From NCBI GenBank assembly GCA_022072515.1, contig JAJVHT010000069.1, positions 30,910 through 94,909 on the forward strand: a DNA stretch of 64,000 bases, written 5' to 3'. The translations under genes were made by a program, and so were the position numbers. The notes beneath the pieces were generated by a model, which searched no databases, was not told the DNA's origin, and was given only the letters and a program-made list of their open reading frames with translations. Origin of the DNA: a bacterium (lineage in GTDB: Bacteria; Zhuqueibacterota; Zhuqueibacteria; Zhuqueibacterales; Zhuqueibacteraceae). The first letter of the stretch is position 1. Every line of letters begins with the position of its first letter. Shown in pieces: positions 1-16,259 of this stretch.

Positions 1-2184
1 ATTGAGAATCTCATATTTGTCGTATTTCCCTTTTGCATGCTCGCGATTCAAGCGTTGCTCCAAGAGATGCTCAAATGTTTCTTCGTGTACCACCCCCGAG
101 CCCATTATCACCGAGGCGCCCAGCAAGGCAATGCGATACGTATTGGGGGGCGGCGTTTGTTCGTAGTCATCATCCCGCATGCCCCAACGATTCGCTTTGA
201 ACGGCACGTCCAACAAAGAGCCTACGTACGAAGGCACAATCTCATACTTCATCAGATCGTCGGTCTTGCGCACGGCATCGGTTTCCGTCAGTGGCTTCCA
301 ATCATCCGGCTTTTTGGCGTAAAGCTCCCAAAGCTGCGAATTAAACGAATGGACGTTGTAGAGCTGTTCGTAGTATCCGCGCTCGAGCAAGACAGCGTCC
401 CGATCATTGAGGCGATCCATCTTCAGTTCCGCAATAAAGTCACTCGCCTTGGCGCCGAGCCGGAAGGCATAAGCTGGTTGCGCCAAAAAATAAAGCAACA
501 AGATTGCCGCCGCGGTCGGCAGGGCAAACCGAAAAAAAGCTAATCGCGATTTTGGCGCTGCGGTTGACCGTGCCGACCATTTTTCATTTACCAGCATCGC
601 GCTGCCAATCCCAGCGATGATCAACAGGAGCGTCATCCCCAACTCCGGCAAGCTTACTTCGGTGTTTGATATGAGATCGATCCATTCTGCCAGGGACGGG
701 CTGATCCAGAGCGACCAGAGCAGTGACATCACCACAAAAACACCTGCGGCCCGCAGGGTTTTGGAGGCGATTTCCTTCAAGGTGGCTTTGCCTTTCACCA
801 AAACCCGCTTACGTCCATATTTCGTTTCGTATATGGAATTGGTCAGTACCAACAAACCGATGCCCAGCCAAAACAAAATATCCGGCAGGGAAAGCAGGAA
901 TGCGCCACGAATCCAAAACCATTGGTAAGCGTGGAAGAACCAGGTGATCAGAAAACCCCACGTAGTCGCCACCACGAGTTTGGTCATATTGCCCGCTTTT
1001 CGCATCCGACAATAGGCCGGATAGAAAAACAATTTTTGGATAAACTCTTTCCAGTAGACATTGACACGCCGCCAGTAATCCGTGAAGCCGGTGGAAAGAA
1101 AATAGAGATCCATGATCCGCAGCAGATTAAAGCCAAACAGATGCAAAATACCGATAATGAGATGAAACTGGCCGGAGATCCGGATAATCAGCGCATAATT
1201 CGTAACCAGGTATTGTACCAGCGTACCGGTGTCGTGCACTTTTTCGGGACTGATAATCCAGTAATAATTAATGTAGCGATAGATCAGCAGATGCACGACC
1301 CCCCAAAACATCCATTTTATGCCGGTTTGATAAATACGATAATCGTCATCATCATAATAGGTTTGGCAAAACGTGCTATAATCCACCACCGGAAACAGCG
1401 GAAAGGCCACATTGGGCAGCAAAAAGAAATACGAGAGCGTGTGGGCAAAACCCGCTTTGTCCGGCGGGACTTGATTATGCTTGAGATCATAAAGATAAAT
1501 AATCAACCGAAACATCAGCATCGAAGCGAGAATCGGCCACAGGGCTTTTGTCCAGGGAACCGGCATATATCCAAAGCGCGCCGCTGTCAGCGCGCCGGCA
1601 GCAATCAACAAAATCGCCACTCGCGCCGCAAAGGCGATCGGCAGATGGCAGATGCCGATCAATAGAAGGCTAAGCCCAATTAACCAGGCGCTGTCGGCAA
1701 AGCCCAATACACTTAAAAACGCGGCCAGCGACAGGACGATAAAAAAAGTTAATCGATACGGACGCGGCAACAGATGATGAATGATAAATCCGTAGAACAC
1801 CAGGGGCATCACTTTTTCATAAAACGCATTGTGCTCCAAATAACATGTGCGCATGATCACCAGCAGTAAACCCAACTGCGCGGCGATGGTCAAGAATTTG
1901 AACAAACCCGGCCAGTCGAGCACAATGGGTTTAAGCCACGCGAGTAAGCCGCGTTGACCGAACGTGAGATCCAGCGCCGCGCCGATGGCCGCAATAACAA
2001 GGCCGCTCAGCATGAGTTTGCTTTGCCAATCACCATTTTTGCCAAACAGGCCGGCGATGCCGATCAAATCTGCGCCTGCGGCAAGCGCGGTTATCGCGCC
2101 GCCGGCCACGAACGCATAAATCGGCAGTATCCGGGGAATGGAGACTGTAGTTTTCTGTGCGAGCTGAGTTTCAGTTTTTGCCAT
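1..2184 (-). CDS. MBOAT-family O-acyltransferase fused to C-terminal SGNH/DltD-like domain, paralog C (C-terminus beyond window edge)
   Basis: Absent from the ORF track because it has no in-window stop. My reverse-strand translation from ATG 2184-2182 stays open to nt 1 (728 codons). It matches the two neighbours motif for motif: AFYEKVMPL, LFPVVDYSTFCQTYYD, GFTDYWRRVNVYWKEF, TWFFHAYQWFWIRG, then NRWGMRDDDYE and YRIALLGAS. Confidence 0.8.
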   Translation of the reverse strand, partial: MAKTETQLAQKTTVSIPRILPIYAFVAGGAITALAAGADLIGIAGLFGKNGDWQSKLMLSGLVIAAIGAALDLTFGQRGLLAWLKPIVLDWPGLFKFLTIAAQLGLLLVIMRTCYLEHNAFYEKVMPLVFYGFIIHHLLPRPYRLTFFIVLSLAAFLSVLGFADSAWLIGLSLLLIGICHLPIAFAARVAILLIAAGALTAARFGYMPVPWTKALWPILASMLMFRLIIYLYDLKHNQVPPDKAGFAHTLSYFFLLPNVAFPLFPVVDYSTFCQTYYDDDDYRIYQTGIKWMFWGVVHLLIYRYINYYWIISPEKVHDTGTLVQYLVTNYALIIRISGQFHLIIGILHLFGFNLLRIMDLYFLSTGFTDYWRRVNVYWKEFIQKLFFYPAYCRMRKAGNMTKLVVATTWGFLITWFFHAYQWFWIRGAFLLSLPDILFWLGIGLLVLTNSIYETKYGRKRVLVKGKATLKEIASKTLRAAGVFVVMSLLWSLWISPSLAEWIDLISNTEVSLPELGMTLLLIIAGIGSAMLVNEKWSARSTAAPKSRLAFFRFALPTAAAILLLYFLAQPAYAFRLGAKASDFIAELKMDRLNDRDAVLLERGYYEQLYNVHSFNSQLWELYAKKPDDWKPLTETDAVRKTDDLMKYEIVPSYVGSLLDVPFKANRWGMRDDDYEQTPPPNTYRIALLGASVIMGSGVVHEETFEHLLEQRLNREHAKGKYDKYEILN

Positions 2185-2205
2185 TGGCTTTTCCTGTTCA
2201 CAAAA

Positions 2206-4767
2206 TTACTTCGTCGCGAGAAGAATTCTGCTATTTTCGCGCAGCGTTTCATAAAGCCGATCGGCCAGGAGTTGATGTCCCTTCGCGTTCGGATGCAAAT
2301 CCCACTCCTTAACGCGCAACTCTTCCGCCGCATGGCCGTCAAAAGCAGAGGAAAGATTGACGATCGCAAATCCTGCGGCTTGGGCCAAATTCATAAAGCG
2401 CGTGCTTAATTTCGCATCGCGTTTGAGTTTTTCCGCCGCCGGCGTAACCACCGGTGTCAGCACATAAACCGGAAGAATGCCATGCTCCCGGCAAATTTGG
2501 GCAAAACGCGGAAAGGCTTCCGCCAGCGCCTCATCACCAAACTCTTTGAGGCGGGTGAAGATTTGCTCAAACGACATATCTTTGTTGACTTCGGCCTTTT
2601 GCACGATCGTGCGCAAAAAATCAAACGGCACGTCGCCGCCATCTTTCACCACATGGGTAAGATGCCGCGCCAGGCTGATTTCATCACGCGGCGTGGCACA
2701 CAAGAAAACGGCGTCCGGTTCAAACGCCACAACCTTTTTTTCCAACAAGAGGAGCTGGCGAATTGTGCAATAACCCGGCACTGAAAAATTCAACAATTCA
2801 TATTTGACAGACGGCTTGCCGCCGTTTTCCCGATTTAGGCGCGCTTCCAAAATGGCTTCGAAGATTTCATCGTCAGAAACACCGCTGCCAAAAGGTCCGG
2901 AAGCACCCAACACGGCGATCCGATAGACGCCGTGAGGTTTCTTTTGCTCATAATCCTGATCGCGAAATCCCCAGCGATTGATCGTCACTTTGGCGTTATG
3001 AAAAATGAGACTGGTTGAAGGAACCAACTCCAACCGCATAAAATCGCCGGTGCCGCGCCCGGCGGCGGTTTCCTGGATCATCGGCCAATCATCCGATTTT
3101 TTCATATCCAGTTCCCAAAGCTGGCTGTTGAATTGATTGGCCGCGTTGAGATTTTCATAATAACCGCGCGTGAGCAATTCAACCTCGTGCTGATTCAGCC
3201 GCGCCGTTTGCAGATCGCGGATGATTTCCTGCGTTCTATTGTCGAATGACGCCAAGGCCGCCGGTTTCCCGGACAAGAAAAGAAAAAGGCTTACAGCACT
3301 GGTCACTGCCGCCGTTCTCAAGAATGGAAAGAATCCGCTATTGGCCGCGGCGCGTTGGGGCGTTTTTTCAAACAGATAGGCGGCCGTTAAAAACACGCCA
3401 AACGCCAGCGCCAAGATGGGAATAAACTTAATCAGCGCGTCCAGCGTGATGTTGGCATTGGACCACAACGCCACCCAGTCGGCTACGGAAGTGCTTGTCC
3501 AAAGCGACCACAGCACCGTGACGATAAAAAAAAGTCCCATCACGCGCAATGCGAGAACAACGATTTCGGTAAACGCCAGTGCGCGTTGTCCCAACGCTTG
3601 TTGGCGACCACGTTTGTTTTCAAGAATCGAGTTGGCAATCACCAAGACGCCAAAGATCGCCCAAAACAGCATATCCGGCGCAGAAAAGAGAAACGAGCCG
3701 CGGATCCAAAACCACTGGTACGCATGAAAGAACCAGGTACACACAAAAACAACCGCCAGCGCAAGGAGCAGGCGGCTGGTGGCGCCCAATTTGCGCAAAC
3801 GGAAATAAAGCGGATAGAAAAAGACTTTCTGCATAAAGTCTTTCCAGTAAACGTTGGCCCGGCGCCAAAAATCCGTAAAGCTGGCCGCCAGAAAAAACCG
3901 CTGCATCGGTTTCGGCAAATTGAAGCCAAACAAATGCAACATGCCGACAACGAGAGTGAACAGTCCGATCAGCCACAGGATCAGCAAATAATTCGCCGTC
4001 ATGTATTGCGCCAAATCACTCAAACTCTTCACGTCTTCAGGGGGAAGCATCCAATAATAATTGATCGCGCGATAAAACATCAGTTGGATGATTCCCAGCA
4101 GCAGCAAATTGATGCCCTTTTGGTAAATCTGATGGCGGTCAGAGTCGTAATAGGTTCGGCAAAACGTGCTGTAATCCACCACCGGAAAGAGCGGGAACAC
4201 CACGTTCGGCAGCATAAAAAAATACGCCAGCGCATGTGGCAGGCTGGTTTTGCCTTTTTGATGTTTGAGATCGTAAAGATAAACCATGAGCCGGAACATG
4301 AACATGGAAGCCAGGATCGGCAAAACGACGCCGGCCCACGCAACTTTGATCTGGCCCAGACGCAGCACAACCAACATGGCGGCCATGGCAAGCAGCAGCG
4401 TGACGCGAACAGCAAGCGAAGCCGGCAGATGGCAAATGCCGATGAGCAGCAGGCCGAGGCCAATCAACCAGAGGCTGTTGGGAAAACCCAGAGCCGCATA
4501 AATTCCCACCACCGAAAGCACGATGAAAAATGGCAACCGATAGCGCTGAGGCAAAAAATAATGAATCAGGAAACCGCCAAAAGCCAACGGCATGATTTTC
4601 TCGTAGAACACCCGATTTTCCAACTGAAACTGGCGGACAACGAGAACAAGAAGGCCGACTTGAATAGCCAGGCTCAAAAACTTAGCCGCACCCATCCAAT
4701 CGCCAAAGAGCGTCCTGAGCCATCCAGAAGAAGTTGGCGAGGTGAGGTTAGCGTCTACTTTGCTCAT
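2206..4767 (-). CDS. MBOAT-family O-acyltransferase fused to C-terminal SGNH/DltD-like domain, paralog B
   Basis: 853-aa ORF with ATG start. The N-terminal ~400 aa are multi-TM, with MBOAT-type signature SFTDFWRRANVYWKDFMQKVFFYP and a conserved His in TWFFHAYQWFWIRG. About three further TM helices follow. The ~330-aa soluble C-terminal domain has YRIAVLGASGPFGSG (Ser block) and KEWDLHPNAKGHQLLADRL (DxxH block of SGNH/GDSL hydrolases). Confidence 0.8.
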   Translation of the reverse strand: MSKVDANLTSPTSSGWLRTLFGDWMGAAKFLSLAIQVGLLVLVVRQFQLENRVFYEKIMPLAFGGFLIHYFLPQRYRLPFFIVLSVVGIYAALGFPNSLWLIGLGLLLIGICHLPASLAVRVTLLLAMAAMLVVLRLGQIKVAWAGVVLPILASMFMFRLMVYLYDLKHQKGKTSLPHALAYFFMLPNVVFPLFPVVDYSTFCRTYYDSDRHQIYQKGINLLLLGIIQLMFYRAINYYWMLPPEDVKSLSDLAQYMTANYLLILWLIGLFTLVVGMLHLFGFNLPKPMQRFFLAASFTDFWRRANVYWKDFMQKVFFYPLYFRLRKLGATSRLLLALAVVFVCTWFFHAYQWFWIRGSFLFSAPDMLFWAIFGVLVIANSILENKRGRQQALGQRALAFTEIVVLALRVMGLFFIVTVLWSLWTSTSVADWVALWSNANITLDALIKFIPILALAFGVFLTAAYLFEKTPQRAAANSGFFPFLRTAAVTSAVSLFLFLSGKPAALASFDNRTQEIIRDLQTARLNQHEVELLTRGYYENLNAANQFNSQLWELDMKKSDDWPMIQETAAGRGTGDFMRLELVPSTSLIFHNAKVTINRWGFRDQDYEQKKPHGVYRIAVLGASGPFGSGVSDDEIFEAILEARLNRENGGKPSVKYELLNFSVPGYCTIRQLLLLEKKVVAFEPDAVFLCATPRDEISLARHLTHVVKDGGDVPFDFLRTIVQKAEVNKDMSFEQIFTRLKEFGDEALAEAFPRFAQICREHGILPVYVLTPVVTPAAEKLKRDAKLSTRFMNLAQAAGFAIVNLSSAFDGHAAEELRVKEWDLHPNAKGHQLLADRLYETLRENSRILLATK

Positions 4768-4875
4768 ATAAACCTTCTTTTTCTATTTCCTGCTTCAGTA
4801 AAATTTCGCGAAATCGGCATTTGCTAACACCGTTTATGGGTGAAAACCAGTGGCCAGCAGCCGCAAAATGAATCT

Positions 4876-5130
4876 CTACTTGCCGCCCAATTTGGCTTGG
4901 ACGAGGCTCGCCAGGCTGGCGATGGTGTTAAAATTTTTGGTGTTCATTTCGTGTGCTTCGATTTGAACTCCATATTTCTTCTCGAGGAACGCCGCCATTT
5001 TAATGGTAGCCATGGAATCAAGAATTCCGCCGCTGACGAGCGGGGTCTCGTCGGCTAATCCCGCCGGATCCTCGCCGGGGAGAAATTCTTCCAGAATATA
5101 ATCCTTCACGATTTTTTTAATTTCGTTCAT
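4876..5130 (-). CDS. Stand-alone acyl/peptidyl carrier protein, DltC-like
   Basis: 84-aa ORF with ATG start. Carrier-protein size, with attachment-site-type motif GGILDSMATIKM (compare DltC LLDSFGTV). It sits between two MBOAT-SGNH genes. Confidence 0.8.
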   Translation of the reverse strand: MNEIKKIVKDYILEEFLPGEDPAGLADETPLVSGGILDSMATIKMAAFLEKKYGVQIEAHEMNTKNFNTIASLASLVQAKLGGK

Positions 5131-5155
5131 CTGTAAATCTCCTTATATGGTTTTT

Positions 5156-5267
5156 CGTAACTATTCAGCTATTTCACCGCCCGGGCGCTTATTTTTGATA
5201 TTGGTTATATCGCGCCATTTATTTTTGTACACAGATTTGAGCGCCCGGGCGGTACTGAATAGTTACG
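5156..5267 (+). repeat. Palindromic ~110-nt intergenic repeat (MITE/REP-like), copy 1
   Basis: Sequence runs cgtaactattcagctatttcaccgcccgggcgc ... gcgcccgggcggtactgaatagttacg. The termini are inverted repeats around a CCCGGG core. Near-identical copies occur at 55663-55772 (same orientation) and 56731-56843 (inverted). It lies between the MBOAT-A stop and the carrier-protein start. Confidence 0.85.
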
Positions 5268-5292
5268 TTTTTTCATCTGTTTAAGAAAAAAA

Positions 5293-7842
5293 TCACTTCC
5301 CTTCGAGATCAAGTAACTCCCGGTTTTCCTGGATTGTTTGATAGAGGCGGTCGGCCAACAGCCGATGTCCTTCGGCGTTGGGGTGCCAATCCCACTCAGC
5401 CACGCGCAGCGAATCCTTATTTTGATTTTCATACGCGTCGGATATATCGATAATCACAAATCCGTTCTCGCGGGCAACACCCATAAAATAGGCATCGCGC
5501 TCCGCATCCTTTTCCAATTTATGCACCACCGGCGTGTAAACATAAATGGGCTGAATGCTGTGCTGCCGGCAAATCTCGGCGAAGCGCGCATAGAGCCAGC
5601 CGAGCATTTCGTTGCCATAAGGTTTGAGGCGCTTCATCGCTTGATCCTCCGTCAGAGACGAATCGATAGCCGCCTTTTGCGCGATCGCCGCCAAGTAATC
5701 ATAGGGCATCGCCACCCCTTTTATCGCTGTTGCCGCCAGATGGCGCAATGAACTGATGTCCTCGCGCGGCGTGGCAATATAGAAGAGCGCATCCGGCTTG
5801 AAATCCAGCGCTTTCTTTTCGAGGACCACAAGTTCCTGAAGTGGGCTGTAGCCCGGCGAGGCAAAATTCAAAATTTCGTATCGGGCCGGCCCCTCGCCAT
5901 TGCGCGCATGATTCAAGCGCTCTTCCAAAAGCCATTCGAACGTCTCATTATCGGCAACGCCGCTGCCGAACACATGCGAGGCGCCGAGAACGGCGATACG
6001 ATAAGTCTGGTCCGCTTTCTCTTTTTCATATTCCTTGTCGCGCATCCCCCAACGATTGGTGCTGAGTTGGGCGCCATGAAAAACAATACGCTTTGAAGGG
6101 ACGATTTCGTCCCGCATAAAATCGCCGGTCAAGCGGCCGGCCGGCGTTTCCCGCAATGTGGGCCAATTGTCTGCCCGTTTCATGTAAATATCGCCAAGCT
6201 GGGTATTGAATTGGTTGGCTTGGTTGATATCTTCGTAGTAGCCGCGCGTCAATAGTTCCTCATCATGGCGATTCAATCTGGCCGTTTGCAGATCGCGAAC
6301 CAGCGCCGGCGTTTTTTCGCCCAAGTGGGTGTTAATATCCGGGTTTCCGATCAAACATAAAGCCAGCATGGGAACACCGGTAAGGAGAGCGGGGCGAAAA
6401 AATGGAACTTCGGTGTCTGGCGCGGCAGCATCACGCCAGGATAATTTTTCCAACACAATGATGGCCACCAAGAACACCCCGGTTGCCAGCAAGCAAGCGA
6501 CGATGACGCCTTGCAAAGTTACACCGGCGCCGGACAACAGGGCAAGCCAGTCCGCTATGGAAGGACTGATCCACAGAGACCAGAGAATGGCAATGACCGC
6601 AAAGACGCCGACAGTACGCAGCGTCCGCACCATGATTTCGCGCCAATTCCACGACGGCTTTTTTAAGATGCGTTTTCTGCCGTGCTTCGCCTCATAAAGC
6701 GAGTTTGCAATCACGATCAATCCAAAGCCGGACCAATACAACACGTCCGGCGCGGAAAACAAGAAAGAGCCTTTAATCCAAAACCATTGATAAGCGTGAA
6801 AAAGCCATGTTAAAATAAAAACCAGCGCCATGGCGAGAAAAAGGCCACTGCTCTCGCCCCGCTGGCGCAGCCGGATATAGAAAGGATAGAAAAACACCTT
6901 CTGCATGAAATCCTTCCAATAAATATTGGCGCGGCGCCAAAAATCCGTGAAACTCGACGCTAAAAAATAATTGTGCATCGTTTCCGGCAGATTGAATCCG
7001 AACAGGTGCAGCATACCGACAATCAAATGAAACTGCCCGGAAACGCGAAGCAAAACCATCATATTCGAAATCATGTATTGGATGAGCGTGCGCAAGCTGA
7101 CCACTTCGTCCGCAGCAATCGCCCAATAATAATTGACATAGCGATACAGAATCAGCAGCACCACCCCGCGGAACATCCAGTAAATCCCTTTCTGGTAAAT
7201 CCGCTGGCGGTCGCTGTCATAATAAGTCTGGCAAAACGTGCTGTAATCCACCACCGGAAAAAGCGGGAACACGACATTGGGCAGCAAAAAGAAATACGCC
7301 AGTGTCGACGCCAGGCGCTTTGTTGGGACGAGGCCGTGCTTCAGATCATAAAAATAAATCATGAGCCGGAACATAAACATGGAGGCGAGAATCGGCAAAA
7401 CCGCGCCGGCCCATGCAACTTTAATCTGGCCGATCCGCAGCAGCGCCAAACCAACACCGCCGGCGAGGAGTAAACCGGCGCGAACGACAAAAGCCACCGG
7501 CAGATGGCAGATACCGATCAACGCCAAGCCAATGCCAACCAGCCATAAACCATTGGGCAAGCCAAACGCCAGATAAATTCCTCCGAAGGAGAGAACAATA
7601 AAAAAAGGCAGACGATAGCGCAGCGGCAAAAAATAGTGCATCAAAAAACCACCAAAAGCCAGCGGCATAATTTTCTCGTAGAACACCTGGTTCTCCACCT
7701 GAAACTGGCGGGAAAGGAAAACGAGAAGGCCGAACTGAATCGCCACGCTCAGAAATTTGCCCACAGCAGCCCAAGCGCCGGCAAGCTGGCCAAACCCTCC
7801 AGCAGCGGCTGGTTGAACAAGCTGAGCGTCTGCTTTGATCAT
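5293..7842 (-). CDS. MBOAT-family O-acyltransferase fused to C-terminal SGNH/DltD-like domain, paralog A
   Basis: 849-aa ORF with ATG start. Same architecture as 2206-4767: SFTDFWRRANIYWKDFMQKVFFYP, TWLFHAYQWFWIKG, YRIAVLGASHVFGSG and AEWDWHPNAEGHRLLADRL. Long stretches are near-identical to its paralogs at the DNA level. Confidence 0.8.
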   Translation of the reverse strand: MIKADAQLVQPAAAGGFGQLAGAWAAVGKFLSVAIQFGLLVFLSRQFQVENQVFYEKIMPLAFGGFLMHYFLPLRYRLPFFIVLSFGGIYLAFGLPNGLWLVGIGLALIGICHLPVAFVVRAGLLLAGGVGLALLRIGQIKVAWAGAVLPILASMFMFRLMIYFYDLKHGLVPTKRLASTLAYFFLLPNVVFPLFPVVDYSTFCQTYYDSDRQRIYQKGIYWMFRGVVLLILYRYVNYYWAIAADEVVSLRTLIQYMISNMMVLLRVSGQFHLIVGMLHLFGFNLPETMHNYFLASSFTDFWRRANIYWKDFMQKVFFYPFYIRLRQRGESSGLFLAMALVFILTWLFHAYQWFWIKGSFLFSAPDVLYWSGFGLIVIANSLYEAKHGRKRILKKPSWNWREIMVRTLRTVGVFAVIAILWSLWISPSIADWLALLSGAGVTLQGVIVACLLATGVFLVAIIVLEKLSWRDAAAPDTEVPFFRPALLTGVPMLALCLIGNPDINTHLGEKTPALVRDLQTARLNRHDEELLTRGYYEDINQANQFNTQLGDIYMKRADNWPTLRETPAGRLTGDFMRDEIVPSKRIVFHGAQLSTNRWGMRDKEYEKEKADQTYRIAVLGASHVFGSGVADNETFEWLLEERLNHARNGEGPARYEILNFASPGYSPLQELVVLEKKALDFKPDALFYIATPREDISSLRHLAATAIKGVAMPYDYLAAIAQKAAIDSSLTEDQAMKRLKPYGNEMLGWLYARFAEICRQHSIQPIYVYTPVVHKLEKDAERDAYFMGVARENGFVIIDISDAYENQNKDSLRVAEWDWHPNAEGHRLLADRLYQTIQENRELLDLEGK

Positions 7843-7983
7843 ATCAATTTCCTTCGTTCTTTGTCAACGGCCAAGAGAGTCGTCGATGAATTCAAGGCCA
7901 GACGAGACTGCGGCGCCGGCGCGCGCGTCCGCCAGTGTTGCCTCGACTCGCCGTTTCCACAATGGCATAACCGTATGAAAACA

Positions 7984-9138
7984 CTATAACCCCAGCCAGC
8001 GCGCAATAATATTCCTCTGCATCTCCGAAGTGCCCGAATAAATCGTGCTGCCGATGGCGTCGCGCAGCGCGCGTTCCACCTCGTATTCGGTCATGAAACC
8101 ATAGCCGCCAAAAATTTGCACGGTGTTCAACGCCGTTTGCACGAGCGCTTCGCTGCCGAACACTTTGGCAATGGCCGCATCAATTGCCACCATGCGCGAG
8201 CGCTCCAGCCCCCAGGCCGCCTTGTAAATGAGCAGCCGCGCCGCCTCCAAACTGATCTTCATATCGGCAATACGGTGCGCCACCGCTTGAAACTTGCCGA
8301 TGGTTTGTCCGAACTGCTTGCGCGTGCGCGCCTGCCGAATTGCCTTCTCCAGCAGCCGCTCCATCGTGCCGACATGACAAGCCACCAGGCAAGCTCGCTC
8401 CCAATCCATCGAATGGGTGAACTGCGTGGAACCGGCGCCGACTTTGCCAAGAACTTGCGAAGCAGGAACATAAACATCTTCATACACCAACTCGCCAATC
8501 GGCGAGGTGCGCAAGCCCATCTTGTCCCACTTCTTACTCGATCTGAAACCGGGCGTGCCTTTCTCCACGAGAAACGTGGTGACGCCGCCGTGGTATCCTT
8601 TTTCCGGATCGGTCAGCGCAAAAGTCACAGCCAGATCGGCGACCGGCCCGTTCGAGCTGAAGGTTTTGGTGCCGTTTATGCGAAAACCCAAGCCGTCCGG
8701 TGTCGCCACGGCGCGCGTGCGCATCGCAAACGCATCCGATCCGGAGTCCGGCTCGCTCATCGCATTCACCGCGATAATCTTGCCGTTGCATAAACCCGGA
8801 AGGTATTTATGCTTTTGCTCTTCACTGCCAAATTTCCAGATCGGAATCACGCAAGCCAGCAAATGCGCGGCAAGAGAAAACGCCAATCCGCCGTCGTGAC
8901 AACCGTACCCAAACGCTTCGAGGGCGATGGCGGTTGACAGGGCATCCAAACCGCCGCCGCCATATTCTTCCGGCACCGGCAGACCCGGCAGCTTCATCTC
9001 GCCGCATTTGAGCCAAAGTTCGGGGGCAAAAATCTGCTCGCGATCCCTTTGCGCAATGCCTTCATTCAACTCTTGCTGCGCGAAACGAACAATCTCATCG
9101 CGCAGCAGCTTTTGTTCATCCGAATAAGAGAAATCCAT
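7984..9138 (-). CDS. Acyl-CoA dehydrogenase-family flavoprotein (probably acting on a carrier-protein-bound acyl or aminoacyl group)
   Basis: 384 aa with the ACAD pattern end to end: MSEPDSGSDA, FGGYGFMTEYEVERALRDA, IYSGTSEMQRNII. The canonical YEGT Glu is Ser here, and a Glu sits in MDWERACL, the isovaleryl-CoA-dehydrogenase-type position. Confidence 0.8.
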   Translation of the reverse strand: MDFSYSDEQKLLRDEIVRFAQQELNEGIAQRDREQIFAPELWLKCGEMKLPGLPVPEEYGGGGLDALSTAIALEAFGYGCHDGGLAFSLAAHLLACVIPIWKFGSEEQKHKYLPGLCNGKIIAVNAMSEPDSGSDAFAMRTRAVATPDGLGFRINGTKTFSSNGPVADLAVTFALTDPEKGYHGGVTTFLVEKGTPGFRSSKKWDKMGLRTSPIGELVYEDVYVPASQVLGKVGAGSTQFTHSMDWERACLVACHVGTMERLLEKAIRQARTRKQFGQTIGKFQAVAHRIADMKISLEAARLLIYKAAWGLERSRMVAIDAAIAKVFGSEALVQTALNTVQIFGGYGFMTEYEVERALRDAIGSTIYSGTSEMQRNIIARWLGL

Positions 9139-9255: not shown

Positions 9256-10599
9256 TTATGCGAAAGAAGATTTGAGCACATCCGCCGTCAGCGAACCCAG
9301 CTTGCTGTGCCAAATATGATTTTCGTTGTTTTCGACAATGTGAATAATTTCCCGCATTTTGCGCAACACTTCGGGTTGCTCCTCATCGTAAACGTCGCCT
9401 TGCAGCAGCTTGAGTACATCGAGGCGGTATTTGGGATTGCTAATAAATGCGGTGAACAGAATATTCAAACGATAATAGACCGCGATAAACTCATACCAGT
9501 TTCGCGTGCCGCGCTTGATGGTGGTCTCAAAAGTTTTGAAACTGTCTTTCGAGAAATTACCGCTTTCCAAAGCCGCGATAATATCCCGGCTGGCAAAGCG
9601 GGAGCTGTTTAACGCAATGCTGACGCCGGTGGAAAAAATGGGATCGACGAAACGCGCCGCGTCACCGACCATCACAAAACGATCGCCGCAAATTTCTTTG
9701 ATGGCATAACTGTAATCGCCTTCTTCCGTAAACGGGCGCATTTGCTCGGATTGTTTGAGCCGCGTAAAGATCTCCGGCCGGGTTCCGACGCAATCCCAAA
9801 AAAACTGCTCGCGCGCGGCGCGCTCTTTAGGAAAATTCATTTTCTGGGTCACCACCCCGATGCTGGTGATCGACTTCGTAATGGGAATCTGCCAGACCCA
9901 ACTATTGTTGAGCGGCAAAAAATGAATGAAAATGTAATCTTGCTTTTCCGAGGAGCCGCGATCATACCCGCGAAACCAGGTATGAATGGCGTATTGATCG
10001 AAAACCGGATCTTTAATTTTCAGTTTCAACCGGTTGCCGAGAAAAGTCCGGCGGCCGCTGGCGTCAACCACCAGGCGCACGTTCACCGGCATTTCTTTTG
10101 CACCGAGACCGACTTTGAGCTGCGCAAAGCCGTTGGCGTTCATATCCACATCTTTAACGGTGACTCCGCTGTAAACCGTCGCGCCGAGCTTTTGCGCATG
10201 TTGCAGCAACAACAAATCAAACTTCCCGCGATCCACGTGGTAGGTGTAATTTTGCTGGACGCCGGGTTGCTCGCGTTCCTCAAAGCGCAGATTGGCCTGA
10301 CAGTCCGGCTCCAGTCCTTCCCACTGGTGATCAGCCGTCAAAGCGCTCGTCGCCACCGTCCACACGGCGCCGTATTTGTGCGGAAATTTATTTTCTTCCA
10401 TCTGCTCGAGCAGACCGAGCTCTTTCAAAACCCGTGTCGAAGACGGCACGAGTGACTCGCCTACGTGCGGGCGGGGGAAAAGCTCGCCTTCGAAGACCAC
10501 ACATTTGATGCCGGCCTTGGCAAGATAAGCCGCCATGCTCGAACCCGCCGGGCCGCCGCCAACAATTCCAACTTCAAAATCTGGTTTTTCGTGATTCAT
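9256..10599 (-). CDS. Flavin-dependent halogenase 1
   Basis: 447 aa. Motifs: GIVGGGPAGS (GxGxxG), FPHKYGAVW (conserved Lys region), NNSWVWQIPIT (WxWxIP) and ARFVDPIFSTGVS (FxxPxxSxG). Confidence 0.85.
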   Translation of the reverse strand: MNHEKPDFEVGIVGGGPAGSSMAAYLAKAGIKCVVFEGELFPRPHVGESLVPSSTRVLKELGLLEQMEENKFPHKYGAVWTVATSALTADHQWEGLEPDCQANLRFEEREQPGVQQNYTYHVDRGKFDLLLLQHAQKLGATVYSGVTVKDVDMNANGFAQLKVGLGAKEMPVNVRLVVDASGRRTFLGNRLKLKIKDPVFDQYAIHTWFRGYDRGSSEKQDYIFIHFLPLNNSWVWQIPITKSITSIGVVTQKMNFPKERAAREQFFWDCVGTRPEIFTRLKQSEQMRPFTEEGDYSYAIKEICGDRFVMVGDAARFVDPIFSTGVSIALNSSRFASRDIIAALESGNFSKDSFKTFETTIKRGTRNWYEFIAVYYRLNILFTAFISNPKYRLDVLKLLQGDVYDEEQPEVLRKMREIIHIVENNENHIWHSKLGSLTADVLKSSFA

Positions 10600-10640
10600 C
10601 TTTCATCTCCATCGCGAATAAGATATGGTAAATGCGCCAA

Positions 10641-11927
10641 TCAATTGACATAGATATCGGATAACGCCTTCTTGAAAATATTTCCTTCCGGCGCATTTTC
10701 GACTTTCTGAATGAATTTCCGCATCTCTTCGAGCACCTCGACTTCGGCGCGATCATAGACTTCTCCCTGCAGCAGTTGCAGAACCTGCACGCGGTACTCT
10801 TTGTGGCTAATAAAGTAGGTGAACGACGGCAGCAGTTTGTAATAAAGCCGGATGAACTCATACCAAATATTGACGCCGCCTCGCACCTTGTCCTCGTAGG
10901 GCTTGAAGGTGGCTTCGCTGAAGTCGCCGGTTGCAAAAGCGAGACGAATTCTTTCCGAGGCGTATTTGGCGCTGTACATGGCGACGCTCACGCCGGAGGA
11001 AAAAATGGGATCGACGAAGCGCGCGGCATCGCCGACCATCAAAAAGCCGTTGCCGCAAAATTTCTCCATGCTATAGCTGTAGTCGCCCTCGCTTTTGAAT
11101 TCATTGATGCGCTCCGCGTTTTGCATGGCGCGGGCGATTTCGGGCGTCGAATTCAACAGCGATTTGAACCAGCCATCGGGATCGAGCTTCGATTCCTTGA
11201 ACACGTCGCGTTCGGCCACCACGCCGACCGAGGTAATCTTATCCGTGATCGGAATCTGCCAAATCCAGCCGCGGTTGACTTTCAAAAAATAGATGTGAAT
11301 ATAATCCGCGCTCTCGCCGGCGCCGCGATCGACGTCTTTGAACCAGGCGTGCACGGCGTACTGATTGAAAATCGGATCCTTTTTCTTCAAATTTAACTGC
11401 CGGCCGAGAAAAGTGCCGCGGCCACTCGCATCGACCACCATCTTGCACGGTATGGTTACCGCTTGGCCGCCAATCTCGAACTGAACTCCCTGCGGATAGC
11501 CATCTTTAAAGATGACTTCCTTGGCGTGGGCACCCTGGTAAACTTTCGAACCAAGCTTCTCGGCATGTTTCAACAGCAGCAAATCGAGCTTGCCGCGATC
11601 GACGTGATAAGTATAATCCTGGTCGATGCCGGGCTGCGCAAATTCGCGAAAGGCGATGTCAAATTCGCCGCGTTTTTCCGGTGGATGCCAGGCGGCGCCG
11701 TATTTTTTGACGAACCCCTCGCGCTCCATCGTCTCCAAAAAGCCGATTTCTTTGAGCACTCGCGTTGTGCTGGTTACCAGAGACTCGCCAACATGCGGCC
11801 GGGGATGATTGGCGCTATCAAAAATCATGTTTTTGATGCCGGCCATCGAAAGATAACTGCCCAATGTCGAACCTGCCGGCCCGCCGCCGATGATGACAAC
11901 GTCTTGCATTCCATTTGATGATTGCAT
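10641..11927 (-). CDS. Flavin-dependent halogenase 2
   Basis: 428 aa, with AAGGAG 8 nt upstream of ATG 11927. Motifs: VIIGGGPAGS, VKKYGAAW, NRGWIWQIPIT (WxWxIP) and ARFVDPIFSSGVS. Paralog of 9256-10599. Confidence 0.85.
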   Translation of the reverse strand: MQSSNGMQDVVIIGGGPAGSTLGSYLSMAGIKNMIFDSANHPRPHVGESLVTSTTRVLKEIGFLETMEREGFVKKYGAAWHPPEKRGEFDIAFREFAQPGIDQDYTYHVDRGKLDLLLLKHAEKLGSKVYQGAHAKEVIFKDGYPQGVQFEIGGQAVTIPCKMVVDASGRGTFLGRQLNLKKKDPIFNQYAVHAWFKDVDRGAGESADYIHIYFLKVNRGWIWQIPITDKITSVGVVAERDVFKESKLDPDGWFKSLLNSTPEIARAMQNAERINEFKSEGDYSYSMEKFCGNGFLMVGDAARFVDPIFSSGVSVAMYSAKYASERIRLAFATGDFSEATFKPYEDKVRGGVNIWYEFIRLYYKLLPSFTYFISHKEYRVQVLQLLQGEVYDRAEVEVLEEMRKFIQKVENAPEGNIFKKALSDIYVN

Positions 11928-12071: not shown

Positions 12072-13538
12072 TTAAGCCGCCAAACTCGTTGCCGGGGCTC
12101 GCACCGCCTCGCGCCGTTTCACAAACTCGAGCAGTGCGAGCAGCGGCCCGGTCATAAATGTCGTCACCAGCGCCATGAGCACCATCATGGCAAAAACGCG
12201 CGGGGAAAGAATCCCCATATCGTATCCAAGGTTGAGCACGATCAACTCCATCAAGCCGCGGGTATTCATCAGCACGCCGATGGATAACGCATCATGCCAG
12301 CTCATGCCGGTCCACCGGGCCGCCAACGCGCTGACGCCTAATTTTCCGGCAATGGCGATTGCAATAATGCCCGCGCCCAGCAACCAACTCTGCCAGTCAT
12401 TCAGCAAGCCAATCTGAGTGCGTAACCCGGTGAAGGCAAAAAACAGCGGCAGCAGAAAGACCGCGCTGAACGTTTCAAGACGCTCGCGGAGAAACAGCCG
12501 CAAACTTGCGTGTTGGGGCATGGCCACGCCGGCGAGAAAAGCGCCGAACAGCGCATGAATACCGATCACTTCGGTGAACAACGCTGCCGCAAAGACAAAT
12601 ATTAAAACGCTGGCGACAACGCCCTTGCCCAACGGCGCATTCTGCGCTTTTGTATCCATAAGACGGCCAGCACTGGGCTTGACGAAAAGCAGCATGATGC
12701 CAATAAAACCCAGCGACAGTGAAATCGTCAGCACGGCCCCGCTCAAGCCGGAGGCTTTGGCAATGGCGACCACGACAGCGAGAAGGCACCAAGCCGTCAC
12801 GTCATCCACCGCCGCGCACGCGATGGCGGTGCTGCCAAGATACGATTTCGCCAAACCGCGCTCTTCGATGATGCGGGCCAGCACCGGAAACGCCGTAATA
12901 CTCATCGCAATTCCGATAAACAGCGCAAATGCGATGAAGGAAACATGCGGAGCTGCCAAAAAATTGTATACCAGCAGTGAGAATGCCACACCGAGAAAAA
13001 ACGGCACCACGATACTAACATGACTCACCAACACCGCGGCGTGCGCTTTTTGGCGCAGGTACTGCAAATTCAATTCAATCCCGACAACGAACATAAACAG
13101 AATCACGCCAATCTGACTGAGCAACCTTAAGGCGCCCATCGAAGCCTCGGGAAAGAGAAAAGCTTCCATTCCCGGCGACAGCATCCCGAGCAAAGAAGGG
13201 CCGAGCAAAATACCGGCAATCATCTCGCCGATTACAGCCGGTTGCCCAATTTTTTGGAAAAGCGCTCCGAACAATCTTGCCGCGGCGATAATCACAATGA
13301 TTTGCAAGAGCAAAATGCTCAACGGATGGTGCAGATTGTCGAGTAAACCTTTGAACAAGTGGCTTGCCGGTGTTTCCGATTGCTGTAATGGCGTCGGCGT
13401 TGTTTCCTGTGAAGGAACGATTCTTTTATATGGGAACGTCTGGCCGGGATGCAGGCGCGAACCGACTTCCAATATAAAGGAAATACCGACTCCAAAGATG
13501 ATGATCAGAACGCCATACACCAACAAATTCTTGCGCAT
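12072..13538 (-). CDS. Cation:proton antiporter (CPA2 / Na_H_Exchanger family)
   Basis: 488 aa, about 12 hydrophobic segments, family-typical GEMIAGILLGPSLLG near the N-terminus. No KTN/TrkA domain. Confidence 0.75.
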   Translation of the reverse strand: MRKNLLVYGVLIIIFGVGISFILEVGSRLHPGQTFPYKRIVPSQETTPTPLQQSETPASHLFKGLLDNLHHPLSILLLQIIVIIAAARLFGALFQKIGQPAVIGEMIAGILLGPSLLGMLSPGMEAFLFPEASMGALRLLSQIGVILFMFVVGIELNLQYLRQKAHAAVLVSHVSIVVPFFLGVAFSLLVYNFLAAPHVSFIAFALFIGIAMSITAFPVLARIIEERGLAKSYLGSTAIACAAVDDVTAWCLLAVVVAIAKASGLSGAVLTISLSLGFIGIMLLFVKPSAGRLMDTKAQNAPLGKGVVASVLIFVFAAALFTEVIGIHALFGAFLAGVAMPQHASLRLFLRERLETFSAVFLLPLFFAFTGLRTQIGLLNDWQSWLLGAGIIAIAIAGKLGVSALAARWTGMSWHDALSIGVLMNTRGLMELIVLNLGYDMGILSPRVFAMMVLMALVTTFMTGPLLALLEFVKRREAVRAPATSLAA

Positions 13539-13616: not shown

Positions 13617-15188
13617 TCACGCAGCCGTCGTCTTCAGCCGTTGGTAATCAATTTTGTCCGTCGAAGTTTTGGGCAGCGTCTCCAAAAACATAAAGAGATC
13701 GGGCACCATATAAGACGGCAAATTTTCCGCACAAAATCCTTTCAGCTCGATCAGTGAGGGGCGCTTGCCGTCTTTGCAACTGAGAAACGCTTTGACGCGC
13801 ACGCCGTTGGTTTCATCCGACAGCGCAATCACTGCGGCTTCGCGGATCGCCGGATGTTTGTAAAGTCCCGCTTCGATCTCGCCGAGCTCGACACGGTAAC
13901 CGCGCTTTTTGACCATGCGATCGCGCCGGCTCACGTAAATATAACCTTCTTCGGCATGCTCGACGACGATGTCGCCGGTTTTATACCAGCGCCGGCCCGT
14001 GTGCTCGGCAAGGAATGACTGCGCCGTGCGTTCCGGCAAATTCCAATAACCCTGCATTACCCCTTCGCCAGTAACGACCAACTCGCCTTCCTGTCCGGCG
14101 GGAACTTCCTGGCCTTGCTCGTCTACGACTTTGCATTGCACGTGCGCGCAGGATTTCCCAATCGGATAGGGCGTGTTGCGCTCTTCCGGAATCGTGGCCG
14201 GGATTTCGTACCAGGTGCAAACGTTCGTTTCGGTCGGACCGTACAAATTGAAATAGCGCGGTTGCGGCAGCAAATTTTTCAACGCGCGCAGATGCTTGAC
14301 GGGAAACACTTCGCCGGCAAAAAAAACGCTGCGCAACGCCGAGCAATCATATTTTTCCAATTTGCCGTATTGCATGAGAAAGCTCAAAATCGACGGCGTC
14401 GAATACCACACCGAAATTTTTTTCTCGGCTAGCAACGGCGCCAGTTGCGCCGGAGCTTTGCCGGTTTCTTCGCTGATCAACACCAGCGTACCGGCATGTT
14501 TGATGGCGAGATAAATATCCAAAATCGACAGATCAAAATGGAACGGCGCATGGGAAGAGAAGCGATCATCGGCGTTCGGCGCAAAAGTATCCGAGCACCA
14601 GTTCACAAAACTGGTGGCGTTGCGATGCGACAGCATCACCCCTTTGGGCAAGCCGGTCGATCCCGAGGTATAGAGAATGTACGCGAGATCATCCGGCGCC
14701 GAAACGGCGGTTGCAGCCGCCGGGGCCGGAGCTTTTTCCTGCGCTTCGTCCAGAGCTTTTTGCAAAAATTTGCCGCCGCCAGTTTCTTCCAGAAGAATGA
14801 AAGCTGGCATGGGAGTTTCCGGCGGCCACTCGGCGCGAAATTTCTCTTCGAAGCGTTGCTCTATGATCACTGCTTTGATCGAGCAATTGCTCAGAATGTA
14901 AACGCCGCGACTAACCGGGGCATTCGGATCGATGGGCACATAAGCCGCACCGGTTTTCAATATGCCGAAGATGGCCGCTACCGCGTCAATGGATTTGCGC
15001 AGATACATTCCAACACGGTCGCCGCGTCGCACACCGAGATAATGCAAACGGTCACGCAGTTGGTCAGAAAGTTTGGCCAAATCGCGATAGGTGATCACGC
15101 CGCTCTCCGGCTCATCCACCGCGGGATGCTCCGGACGAACGCGGGCGGAATCGTCGAGAAACTGATGCAAAGGGTTGAACGCCGTCAT
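13617..15188 (-). CDS. Stand-alone adenylation enzyme, DltA-like (amino acid--carrier protein ligase)
   Basis: 523 aa. Motifs: LAYILYTSGSTGLPKGV (A3), FHFDLSILDIY (A4), VWYSTPS, FFAGEVFPV, NLYGPTETNV (A5), WYKTGD (A7), VKKRGYRVELGEIE (A8) and KTSTDKIDYQ (A10). The spacing and motifs resemble B. subtilis DltA as I recall it. Confidence 0.8.
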   Translation of the reverse strand: MTAFNPLHQFLDDSARVRPEHPAVDEPESGVITYRDLAKLSDQLRDRLHYLGVRRGDRVGMYLRKSIDAVAAIFGILKTGAAYVPIDPNAPVSRGVYILSNCSIKAVIIEQRFEEKFRAEWPPETPMPAFILLEETGGGKFLQKALDEAQEKAPAPAAATAVSAPDDLAYILYTSGSTGLPKGVMLSHRNATSFVNWCSDTFAPNADDRFSSHAPFHFDLSILDIYLAIKHAGTLVLISEETGKAPAQLAPLLAEKKISVWYSTPSILSFLMQYGKLEKYDCSALRSVFFAGEVFPVKHLRALKNLLPQPRYFNLYGPTETNVCTWYEIPATIPEERNTPYPIGKSCAHVQCKVVDEQGQEVPAGQEGELVVTGEGVMQGYWNLPERTAQSFLAEHTGRRWYKTGDIVVEHAEEGYIYVSRRDRMVKKRGYRVELGEIEAGLYKHPAIREAAVIALSDETNGVRVKAFLSCKDGKRPSLIELKGFCAENLPSYMVPDLFMFLETLPKTSTDKIDYQRLKTTAA

Positions 15189-15218: not shown

Positions 15219-16259
15219 TTATGCCGCTTTATATCCGCGCACGAAACTATTCACGCCGTAAACTGACATCGCACTGGAGACGATATTGCTGAAACCCGCT
15301 TCCGCCAACCAGCGTTTGCTGTCGCTCATCGTATGGTTCTTGCCGTGTTTTGTCGTGCAGAGCAAATCCAGATCGATGAAGACGGCCCAACGCCCGCCTA
15401 GGCGGTTTTCCTGCAAGTGTTGTGACTGGATGACGACGGAGCCGCCGGGATTGAGTGCTTCATGCAAACGCGCCAGGAGCCGCCGGCGTGTCGCCTCATC
15501 GAAAATGTGCAGCAGATTCGAGGCGAGAATCAAATCGTACGATCCGGGAATATCGTCGCGCACCGCATCGAACGGCAAATAGTGCACTTCATTTTGCAAT
15601 GGATACTTTGCCTGAATTTCTTTGGCCACGTCCAGAACGCCGGCATTATCCATCAGATAAAGCTGCAAATCCGGATTGCGCATTCCCAACATAAACGCAT
15701 ACGTGCCCGAGCCGCAGCCCAAATCCAACAAAGTTTTGCAGCCGCGCGTGTCCAGATAGTGCGCCAGCTCTTTGCCGCGCAATGACGCGTAGTTGTGCAT
15801 GGCCAGCGTGTAAGTGCGCGTGAGATTGGGGTCGACGCCGAGATAATCGGCCTGGTCGGCCGTGGGTTCGGAGCTGAGCACGGCTTCATCAAGGCGGAAG
15901 ATGGCCGTGCAAAATTCTTTCTGCAGGCGAATCCAATTGCCGAGGTAATTATCGCCGGCGGACGGCAACAACACAGACCGGCATGCTGGTGCGGCCCGAA
16001 AGCTGGTGCCGTCTTCGGTTTCAAGCAGCTTCAGCACGACGCCGGCATTTAACAAACGCACCAAAGATTCCGGCCGCGCTTTGATTTCTGCCGCCAGCGC
16101 TTGCACCGTCTTGCTGTCATCGCCGAGGCGCTCGAAAATTTCCAGTTTGAGCAGCGCGAACAGAACGCTGGACTGATAAAAGCCTTCGGCGATGGTCAGC
16201 ACCTGAATTTGATCTTTGATGATCGAGGTGCGGTTCGAGGTTGTCGGTGGTTGCGCCAT
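15219..16259 (-). CDS. SAM-dependent O-methyltransferase (class I, with N-terminal dimerisation-type domain)
   Basis: Motif I is LLDLGCGSGTYAFML, with a helical N-terminal domain typical of small-molecule OMTs. The track ORF extends to 16334, but that overlaps the upstream gene by 71 nt. The internal ATG at 16259 (MAQPPTTS) leaves a 4-nt gap after the upstream stop. Confidence 0.75.
   Translation of the reverse strand: MAQPPTTSNRTSIIKDQIQVLTIAEGFYQSSVLFALLKLEIFERLGDDSKTVQALAAEIKARPESLVRLLNAGVVLKLLETEDGTSFRAAPACRSVLLPSAGDNYLGNWIRLQKEFCTAIFRLDEAVLSSEPTADQADYLGVDPNLTRTYTLAMHNYASLRGKELAHYLDTRGCKTLLDLGCGSGTYAFMLGMRNPDLQLYLMDNAGVLDVAKEIQAKYPLQNEVHYLPFDAVRDDIPGSYDLILASNLLHIFDEATRRRLLARLHEALNPGGSVVIQSQHLQENRLGGRWAVFIDLDLLCTTKHGKNHTMSDSKRWLAEAGFSNIVSSAMSVYGVNSFVRGYKAA

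Follow-up and report, generated by a model that had tools for sequence, protein, structure and literature searches.

Three proteins of about 850 residues, each joining a membrane-bound O-acyltransferase (MBOAT) fold to an SGNH-type domain, are encoded around a small carrier protein at one end of the window, the 64,000 nt stretch of DNA analysed here (contig JAJVHT010000069.1, assembly GCA_022072515.1), and they raise the question of which acyl group they transfer and onto what. An earlier interpretation of this DNA (hereafter the sequence-only reading) took the locus for a multiplied and fused Dlt route acting with D-alanine. On balance we lean towards a different answer, namely that the locus encodes the transfer end of a transmembrane, carrier-protein-dependent acylation system whose acyl group is derived from proline and not D-alanine. 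The donor would most probably be a (halo)pyrrole-2-carbonyl-S-carrier protein instead of D-alanyl-DltC.

Gene content of the locus

All genes of the region (1-16334) lie on the minus strand and are separated by short gaps. In transcription order, and with all coordinates here and below given as window positions, they are:

15219..16334, minus strand: O-methyltransferase, the first gene listed
13617..15188, minus strand: stand-alone adenylation enzyme, predicted L-proline-specific and PltF-like (TIGR01733, PltF match and specificity code)
12072..13538, minus strand: CPA2-family cation/proton antiporter-like membrane protein (Na_H_Exchanger, 193 bits)
10641..11927, minus strand: second FADH2-dependent halogenase, pyrrolyl-carrier-protein class (PDB matches and motifs)
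9256..10599, minus strand: FADH2-dependent halogenase, pyrrolyl-carrier-protein class, PltA/Mpy16/ChlB4-like (PDB matches and motifs)
7984..9138, minus strand: FAD-dependent prolyl-carrier-protein dehydrogenase with an acyl-CoA dehydrogenase fold (NCBIfam and PDB matches)
5293..7842, minus strand: paralog A, MBOAT-SGNH fusion, 849 aa (translation, domain and identity comparison)
4876..5130, minus strand: stand-alone carrier protein, 84 aa, phosphopantetheine site Ser39 (PP-binding and PDB matches)
2206..4767, minus strand: paralog B, MBOAT-SGNH fusion, 853 aa (domain scan, AlphaFold2 model, Foldseek and hhalign)
1..2184, minus strand: paralog C, MBOAT-SGNH fusion, 728 codons, the C-terminus lying beyond the window edge (translation)

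In the source record, paralog A, paralog B and the carrier are all listed as hypothetical proteins. The inventory given by the sequence-only reading is confirmed at the coordinates it stated: the three fusions are there with the sizes listed, as is the carrier between paralogs A and B, and the motifs quoted for the fusions are present, except that paralog C reads FTDYWRR and not FTDFWRR. An adenylation enzyme does lie upstream, as had been described, but it carries a proline code and is not a DltA. The genes that had been skipped between this enzyme and paralog A encode a prolyl-carrier dehydrogenase and two halogenases, which contradicts the proposal of a multiplied D-alanine route.

A predicted proline-to-pyrrole cassette upstream of the fusion genes

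The adenylation enzyme scored 381 bits against TIGR01733 (cut-off 317), and its top match among stand-alone enzymes in the PDB was PltF (6o6e, 334 bits), with DltA reaching at most 227 bits. Entry 6o6e represents PltL-PltF, in which PltF loads L-proline (PMC8857579). The substrate-pocket fragment scored 119 bits against PltF, 78 against PigI and at most 66 against DltA, while the DltA equivalog model gave the whole enzyme 298 bits against a cut-off of 560. The ten specificity positions, read from the PltF, PigI and DltA alignments with GrsA numbering, were as follows:

DLLYFALVCK: window adenylation enzyme
DLLYLALVCK: PltF (L-proline)
DLFYIAWVCK: PigI
DLMVFCTVAK: DltA (7vhv)

The window code is that of PltF at nine of the ten positions, and the enzyme is predicted to be L-proline-specific. 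A literature search for the specificity-code strings returned no match.

The carrier protein, whose gene sits among the fusion genes, was the sole free-standing carrier detected in the window by phmmer. Its Ser39 lies within GGILDSMATI, and Pfam PP-binding matched at 25 bits (cut-off 20.8). The sequence-only reading had called it DltC-like, a label that the scores do not bear out: the Bmp1 carrier protein (6cxt_A, 44 bits), PltL (34.6 bits) and PigG (33.5 bits) all outscored DltC (~25 bits) in the PDB, and two NCBIfam DltC models stayed below their cut-offs (29 bits for a cut-off of 68, 19 bits for one of 52).

The two best NCBIfam models for the dehydrogenase were PigA (440.7 bits) and RedW, an L-prolyl-peptidyl carrier protein (PCP) dehydrogenase (422 bits), both below their equivalog cut-offs. 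In the PDB it matched AnaB (4irn, 394 bits), the L-prolyl-PCP dehydrogenase 5zw0 (328 bits) and Bmp3 (6cxt_B, 288 bits), with generic acyl-CoA dehydrogenases at 278 bits or less. AnaB stops at the two-electron product, pyrroline-5-carboxyl-ACP (acyl carrier protein). Carrier and dehydrogenase thus each match one chain of the same co-crystal entry, 6cxt, the complex of the Bmp1 PCP with the Bmp3 dehydrogenase that converts PCP-bound proline to pyrrole (PMC8857579).

Both halogenases gave full-length PDB matches to pyrrolyl-carrier enzymes, that at 9256..10599 to ChlB4 (577 bits), PltA (569 bits) and 5buk (Mpy16, 569 bits), and that at 10641..11927 to 5buk (Mpy16, 441 bits), ChlB4 (423 bits) and PltA (420 bits), with E between 1e-125 and 1e-172 for these matches. 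The GxGxxG, WxWxIP and FxxPxxSxG signature motifs are present in both. It is only because these halogenases are present that an aromatic pyrrole stage is argued here. Judged by homology, the cassette as a whole would follow the standard thiotemplated route from L-proline to a (halo)pyrrole-2-carbonyl-S-carrier protein, and would not be a D-alanine loader.

The gene for the CPA2 antiporter is located between those for the adenylation enzyme and the halogenases, and CPA2 homologues adjoin PltA-like halogenase genes in distant phyla (L003 1-329, L013 8294-9769, L019 19083-20570, L038, L042 and L047; L numbers denote the loci of the comparison below). This protein may supply ions or halide for halogenation.

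Architecture of the fusion proteins

NCBIfam returned no MBOAT match for the three paralogs, and PDB searches with a single sequence or with a 46-sequence profile did not reach DltB. We therefore assign the MBOAT domain from fold and profile-profile evidence, because Pfam, NCBIfam and the PDB sequence and profile searches all miss it. Paralog B, modelled with AlphaFold2 from the 46-member family alignment (pLDDT 84.4, pTM 0.80), had DltB (8jem, 6bug) as its top Foldseek match in the PDB (E 2.8e-7 to 1e-6, TM-score 0.62 normalised to DltB), followed by human HHAT and PORCN. By this model the N-terminal half of the fusions is an MBOAT fold, the membrane domain of which covers residues ~24-390 of paralog B (residue numbers below are those of this protein). 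Alignment of the family profile by hhalign with the Pfam-positive MBOAT of locus L061 (probability 61%, E 8e-5) placed FTDFWRRxN(305) on FWRCWH and TWFFH(348)AYQW on GLWHGASW. H348 thus falls on the catalytic His and N305 on the upstream His of that protein, the two conserved MBOAT positions, and both residues are invariant among the family members examined (46 + 20). The invariant residues of paralog B comprise H169, D198, N305, H348, G535-Y536-Y537-E538, S623, N660, D823 and H825.

Three further transmembrane (TM) helices follow the MBOAT core (399-424, 442-468 and 479-499), the first with an invariant W-S-L-W-x-S at its outer end, and lead into the SGNH domain (~505-853), in agreement with the three-part architecture read earlier from the sequence. 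Lipase_GDSL_2 matched paralog B above its cut-off (34.7 bits against 32.9) and paralog A below it (23.2 bits). In Foldseek the C-terminal half matched the SGNH/GDSL esterases CgnD, EstL5, E. coli TesA and LAE5 (TM-scores of 0.65-0.78 on the target). S623, D823 and H825, invariant in all 46 + 20 members, aligned with SGNH blocks I and V. Block I reads G-A-S instead of G-D-S throughout the family (621-623, window ~2899-2907).

Lys and Arg are abundant in loops 384-398 and 466-484 and absent from loop 425-441, and because this is a positive-inside pattern the former two are predicted to be cytoplasmic and the SGNH domain extracytoplasmic. We infer accordingly that the SGNH domain lies outside the membrane, the topology that the sequence-only reading had assumed.

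In characterised MBOAT/SGNH systems the acyl group passes via the tyrosine of an FxYxxF motif, on DltX or at the MBOAT C-terminus (PMC12148441). No small DltX-like open reading frame (ORF) ending in FxYxxF was found within window positions 1-20000, and among 20 family members only L001_2 has a match to the motif, FKYAQF at residue 758, which falls within the soluble domain and off the shuttle position. The invariant GYYE (535-538) is found in a low-confidence and presumably flexible loop of the model directly past the last TM helix, and we propose its two tyrosines as a candidate acyl shuttle replacing FxYxxF. AT3 (PF01757) had no match in paralogs A, B or C.

With both halves of the system described, the D-alanine interpretation can be weighed. 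It holds that D-alanine is loaded on a DltC-like carrier and transferred to as many as three surface polymers by a Dlt system that has been fused and multiplied, and it draws on the shared logic of adenylation enzyme, small carrier, MBOAT and SGNH, on DltB being the top structural match, and on the match of DltA models to the adenylation enzyme at ~300 bits. We regard it as highly improbable: the specificity code follows PltF and differs from that of DltA at about half of its positions, the DltA and DltC equivalog scores fall far under their cut-offs, a prolyl-carrier dehydrogenase and two pyrrolyl-carrier halogenases stand between the adenylation enzyme and the fusions, and neither DltX nor the FxYxxF motif accompanies them (20 members; ORFs in 1-20000).

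Distribution and synteny of the fusion family

More than 2445 clusters at 90% identity matched the fusion at E<=1e-5, and 996 representatives at 50% identity matched at E<=1e-30, nearly all of them full-length fusions of 830-970 aa. Relatives are encoded in 505 GTDB species genomes from KSB1, Chloroflexota, Gemmatimonadota, Acidobacteriota, Eisenbacteria, Planctomycetota, Verrucomicrobiota and Methylomirabilota, along with numerous Betaproteobacteria (Accumulibacter, Thauera, Azoarcus and Rhodocyclaceae among them).

Synteny was assessed with the window proteins in 38 GTDB loci where the fusion gene is flanked by 4 kb or more in each direction. A carrier protein was found no farther than 4 kb from the fusion in 34 loci, an adenylation enzyme in 29 and a dehydrogenase in 30; all three occurred together in 28, with a PltA-like halogenase in addition in 8, and 2 loci had none of the three. 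The module is often a self-contained four-gene operon. The exact PltF code, DLLYLALVCK, was present in 34 of the 53 adenylation enzymes associated with fusions, and the rest were one position off. Taking the 34 of 38 loci with an adjacent carrier as its basis, we suggest that the fusion MBOAT would take its acyl group from a carrier-protein thioester; to this extent the carrier-dependent acylation across the membrane envisaged by the sequence-only reading fits the synteny.

The simplest arrangement is that of Ca. Accumulibacter L061, where fusion, carrier protein, adenylation enzyme and dehydrogenase follow back to back, flanked by a lytic transglycosylase, an epimerase, a CCA-adding enzyme and transposases. 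No non-ribosomal peptide synthetase (NRPS) or polyketide synthase (PKS) was found near this four-gene module, which leaves the fusion as the sole off-loading candidate in operons of this type. A conventional Pfam-positive MBOAT of the AlgI type (L061 20525-22078, plus strand) is encoded ~5 kb from the module. Close relatives of the window (L001, L003, L008 and L009) combine 2-3 halogenases, a dehydrogenase, 2-3 fusions and 1-2 carrier proteins, and the same loci also have GT4, sulfotransferase and epimerase genes; L001 encodes in addition an Alginate_exp porin (3865-5250).

These arrangements bear on whether the cassette and the fusions work together at all. Were they to have two separate functions, the fusions would be acetyl- or acyl-CoA-dependent O-acyltransferases for polysaccharide, and the halopyrrolyl carrier would feed a soluble product via an A-PCP (adenylation-PCP) protein, a thioesterase and an MbtH-like protein. 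Such a division has precedent, in that the characterised non-Dlt MBOAT/SGNH systems all use acyl-CoA (PMC12148441), and genes for all three proteins, the thioesterase being of type II, are indeed present in the window. We nevertheless think it unlikely, given that the carrier gene lies among the fusion genes and keeps that adjacency across phyla, that minimal operons such as L061 offer the fusion alone for off-loading, and that the NRPS protein of the window is without the HHxxxDG condensation motif.

A second question is how far the carrier-bound group is oxidised. The same route could deliver an L-prolyl or pyrroline-5-carboxyl group, that is, a cationic aminoacyl ester with an effect nearer to that of D-alanylation. 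AnaB is the closest solved relative of the dehydrogenase, and L005 and L006 have carrier, adenylation enzyme and fusion with no dehydrogenase within 10 kb, which suggests a plain prolyl variant in these two loci; set against this for the window are two full-length PltA-class halogenases beside the dehydrogenase, whose substrate by homology is the aromatic pyrrolyl-S-carrier. For the window we judge a non-aromatic group to be improbable, and it may well be the right description of dehydrogenase-free members elsewhere.

Two further arrangements were noted among the relatives. Six loci from Chloroflexota and Acidobacteriota (L017 9264-18039, L018, L021, L027, L029 and L042) hold two proline-activating sets each, the first consisting of a carrier, an adenylation enzyme with DLLYLALVCK and the fusion, and the second of a dehydrogenase, an adenylation enzyme with DLFYLALVCK, a halogenase and a divergent second carrier protein; they also encode a stand-alone protein of ~380 aa that bears a weak resemblance to the fusion's soluble domain. 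In L001 (8737-9909) and L003 (5912-7087), an alpha/beta hydrolase with a weak sorting tail of the type IX secretion system (T9SS) is encoded between the dehydrogenase and the first fusion, a gene absent from the window.

Proposed route and points against it

From the domain folds, the conserved residues, the homology of the cassette enzymes, the adenylation code and the cross-phylum synteny, we propose the following chemistry for a proline-derived acyl group, each step of which is conditional. The PltF-like enzyme (13617..15188) would activate L-proline and load it on Ser39 of the 84-aa carrier, after which the flavoprotein dehydrogenase (7984..9138) would convert the prolyl-S-carrier to pyrrole-2-carbonyl-S-carrier, and the two PltA-type halogenases (9256..11927) would chlorinate or brominate the carrier-bound pyrrole ring. 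The loaded carrier could then dock with one of the three paralogs, A, B or C, on the cytoplasmic side of its MBOAT domain, where His348 with Asn305 would move the acyl group through the membrane to an outer nucleophile, either Tyr536/Tyr537 of GYYE or the SGNH serine directly. Finally, the tethered SGNH domain (Ser623, His825 and Asp823) would place the group on a hydroxyl of an acceptor outside the cytoplasm, most likely the sulfated, phosphorylated glycan or glycolipid for whose synthesis the remaining cluster genes apparently provide.

Several observations weigh against this scheme. The Pfam MBOAT families (PF03062/PF13813) gave no match at E<=1 in paralogs A, B or C, and the hhalign probability quoted above is low. 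Block V of the SGNH domain reads D-x-H, one residue short of the canonical D-x-x-H, family-wide (823-825, window ~2293-2301), no block III Asn (GxND) was recognised, N660 being invariant within 'LNF', and FxYxxF was missing at the expected position from paralogs A, B and C, 19 of the 20 members checked having no match to it. Full oxidation to pyrrole is uncertain because the closest solved relative of the dehydrogenase is AnaB. Among the syntenic loci, L005 is without the dehydrogenase, and L025 and L054 are without all three partners. Lastly, the strongest family match of the carrier was NCBIfam 'ACP_for_OlsHI', an ACP of an ornithine-lipid pathway; the 105 bits fall short of the cut-off (130) and greatly exceed the score of every pyrrole-pathway or DltC model.

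The last match prompted us to consider a role with OlsH and OlsI, a GH3-like enzyme and an alpha/beta hydrolase respectively (PMC12493201). This candidate was dropped, neither enzyme being among the window ORFs scanned.

A wider generalisation, of which we are slightly more doubtful than confident, is that in at least 10 phyla MBOAT-SGNH fusions place a pyrrole-2-carbonyl group (prolyl where there is no dehydrogenase) from a proline-loaded carrier in ester linkage on an envelope polymer or exopolymer, with GYYE as the shuttle, and that in the clade of the window the group is halogenated and handled by three paralogs, giving an organohalogen polymer.

Relationship and age of the three paralogs

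Paralogs A and B share 57% amino-acid identity and A and C 51%, C being 50-51% identical to A and B. Every copy retains the candidate catalytic residues: paralog C, which has ~70 additional N-terminal residues with two hydrophobic helices within them, keeps the equivalents of N305, H348, GYYE and S623. The near-identity at the DNA level on which the sequence-only reading had built a recent duplication or gene conversion was not found, the top inter-paralog repeat being 83% over 113 nt and the others 60-75%. In a neighbour-joining tree, A, B and C fell into three separate groups, each common to matching genes of L007/L050 (KSB1) and of L003/L008/L001, with paralog C grouping with L050, L003_3, L008_3 and L001_2; candidate division KSB1 supplies the closest relatives (81-82% identity). 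Because three orthologous groups are common to other metagenome-assembled genomes (MAGs), the triplication is old and precedes the split of these lineages, and both recent duplication and gene conversion are rejected. Each paralog probably has its own acceptor position or acyl form.

The ATG of paralog A is overlapped by a near-consensus sigma-70-like promoter (7867..7838, minus strand; TTGACA, 18 nt spacer, TG-TATGAT, 11/12). This match may be due to chance, or the true start may lie farther downstream; promoter and terminator scanning of the region was uninformative for operon boundaries.

The surrounding cluster and the acceptor

From ~2 to 58 kb the window forms one minus-strand supercluster. 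Its glycan-type genes encode glycosyltransferases (GT) of families GT1, GT2 and GT28, four sulfotransferases and six kinases like aminoglycoside phosphotransferase (APH), and its export genes two ABC exporters and a MacB/HlyD/TolC set, with T9SS cargo proteins as well. The features individually located are:

16854..18547 and 24973..25734, minus strand: sulfotransferases, two of the four in the strand-run
20846..22186, minus strand: serine hydroxymethyltransferase, adjoining the NRPS-like protein
22220..24976, minus strand: NRPS-like A-PCP protein preceded by the C-terminal half of a condensation domain, the sole NRPS protein in the window
25769..27640: T9SS tail protein, a diderm marker
27624..28439, minus strand: type II thioesterase, near the NRPS-like protein
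28470..29048, minus strand: MbtH-like protein, near the NRPS-like protein
54021..55619: TolC-type outer membrane efflux protein, a diderm marker
56938..58786, minus strand: ATP sulfurylase and adenosine 5'-phosphosulfate (APS) kinase, for synthesis of 3'-phosphoadenosine 5'-phosphosulfate (PAPS), in the same strand-run as the four sulfotransferases

The TolC-type protein and the T9SS tail agree with the diderm host supposed in the sequence-only reading. A sulfated product is implied because the genes for PAPS synthesis share a strand-run with the four sulfotransferases, and the acceptor is likely to be a sulfated or phosphorylated glycan or glycolipid, since the cluster holds PAPS, sulfotransferase, glycosyltransferase and kinase genes. 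The role of the NRPS-like protein as consumer of the pyrrolyl-carrier protein is weakened because its HHxxxDG motif is missing; it might instead serve one of the three paralogs as a second aminoacyl donor. The six APH-like (phosphotransferase family) kinase genes are interleaved with GT1 glycosyltransferases and the two ABC exporters at 31579..45733 (minus strand), an unusual multiplication.

The acceptor is also where an export function would part from decoration. In that case the MBOAT domain would move the acyl group, the SGNH domain would hydrolyse it, and free (halo)pyrrole-2-carboxylic acid would appear outside, acting as a signal or metabolite. Esterase activity is common among SGNH domains, the top structural matches here are esterases and thioesterases, no acceptor was identified, and the proteobacterial operons have no adjoining glycan genes, all of which would suit export. 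A cytoplasmic thioesterase plus an exporter would, however, be simpler; hydrolysis alone hardly explains three separately conserved paralogs; and in the clade of the window the module is embedded among glycosyltransferase, sulfotransferase and PAPS genes. We consider export quite unlikely, and favour acylation of an extracytoplasmic acceptor, probably a glycan or glycolipid.

Significance and comparison with known systems

We found no paper describing this MBOAT-SGNH fusion family, and none of relevance on MBOAT proteins with pyrrolyl carriers or halogenases or on DltB/DltD fusions with adenylation enzymes, within an incomplete coverage of the literature. Our verdict is that the family is a previously undescribed MBOAT-SGNH type, a prior description being possible. 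It would represent a third architecture for bacterial polymer acylation, beside the MBOAT with a separate SGNH protein and the AT3-SGNH fusion (cf. PMC12148441). A proline-derived heteroaromatic acyl group on a cell-surface polymer was not found reported in the literature, and if the reading proposed here is true it would constitute a new chemical class of envelope decoration and the second carrier-protein-dependent MBOAT system after Dlt. It would likewise give a function to ~1000 clusters of 'hypothetical proteins', some in organisms important for wastewater treatment, extend thiotemplated pyrrole biosynthesis beyond small-molecule natural products, and offer a natural single-chain system for MBOAT-to-SGNH acyl passage without the FxYxxF tyrosine shuttle.

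The system resembles Dlt in its adenylation enzyme and small carrier, and in an MBOAT that would take the acyl group from the carrier across the membrane for an SGNH-type domain to complete the transfer. It differs in that the acyl group would be proline-derived, and oxidised and halogenated on the carrier; in that MBOAT and SGNH form one polypeptide through three extra TM helices, with three paralogs in this window and no DltX or FxYxxF; and in its hosts, which are mostly diderm or non-Firmicute phyla. Among characterised systems Dlt alone uses a carrier protein, and AT3-SGNH enzymes are the only ones described as covalent fusions (PMC12148441).

With PatA/PatB, AlgI/AlgJ/AlgX/AlgF, WssH/I and B. 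cereus PatA1/PatB1 the fusions share the pairing of an MBOAT with an SGNH-family transferase, which in those systems is extracytoplasmic and acts on envelope or secreted glycans and is predicted to do so here. All of these systems use acetyl-CoA as donor, have no carrier, consist of separate proteins and bear FxYxxF at the MBOAT C-terminus (PMC12148441), whereas the fusions are single chains linked to a carrier and are without the motif; the SGNH subtypes of AlgX, AlgJ and PatB also differ from that of the fusion. AT3-SGNH enzymes of the OatA/OafA type are alike in placing a membrane acyl-translocating domain and an extracytoplasmic SGNH domain on one chain, and in OatA an outer-loop tyrosine shuttles the acyl group (PMC12148441). 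Unlike these, the fusions have a membrane domain of MBOAT and not AT3 fold, and their predicted donor is a carrier thioester and not acetyl-CoA.

The cassette, for its part, shares four enzyme types (proline adenylation enzyme, type II PCP, flavin dehydrogenase and FADH2 halogenase), with strong homology, with PltF/PltL/PltE/PltA (pyoluteorin), Bmp4/Bmp1/Bmp3/Bmp2 (bromopyrroles), PigI/PigG/PigA and RedM/RedO/RedW. A pyrrole-2-carbonyl group is placed on a sugar, the noviose of clorobiocin, by CloN2 and CloN7. In the known pyrrole cassettes the pyrrolyl-S-PCP is used by a PKS or NRPS in the cytoplasm, or by a soluble acyltransferase, and ends in a small molecule, whereas the conserved partner here is a membrane MBOAT-SGNH fusion.

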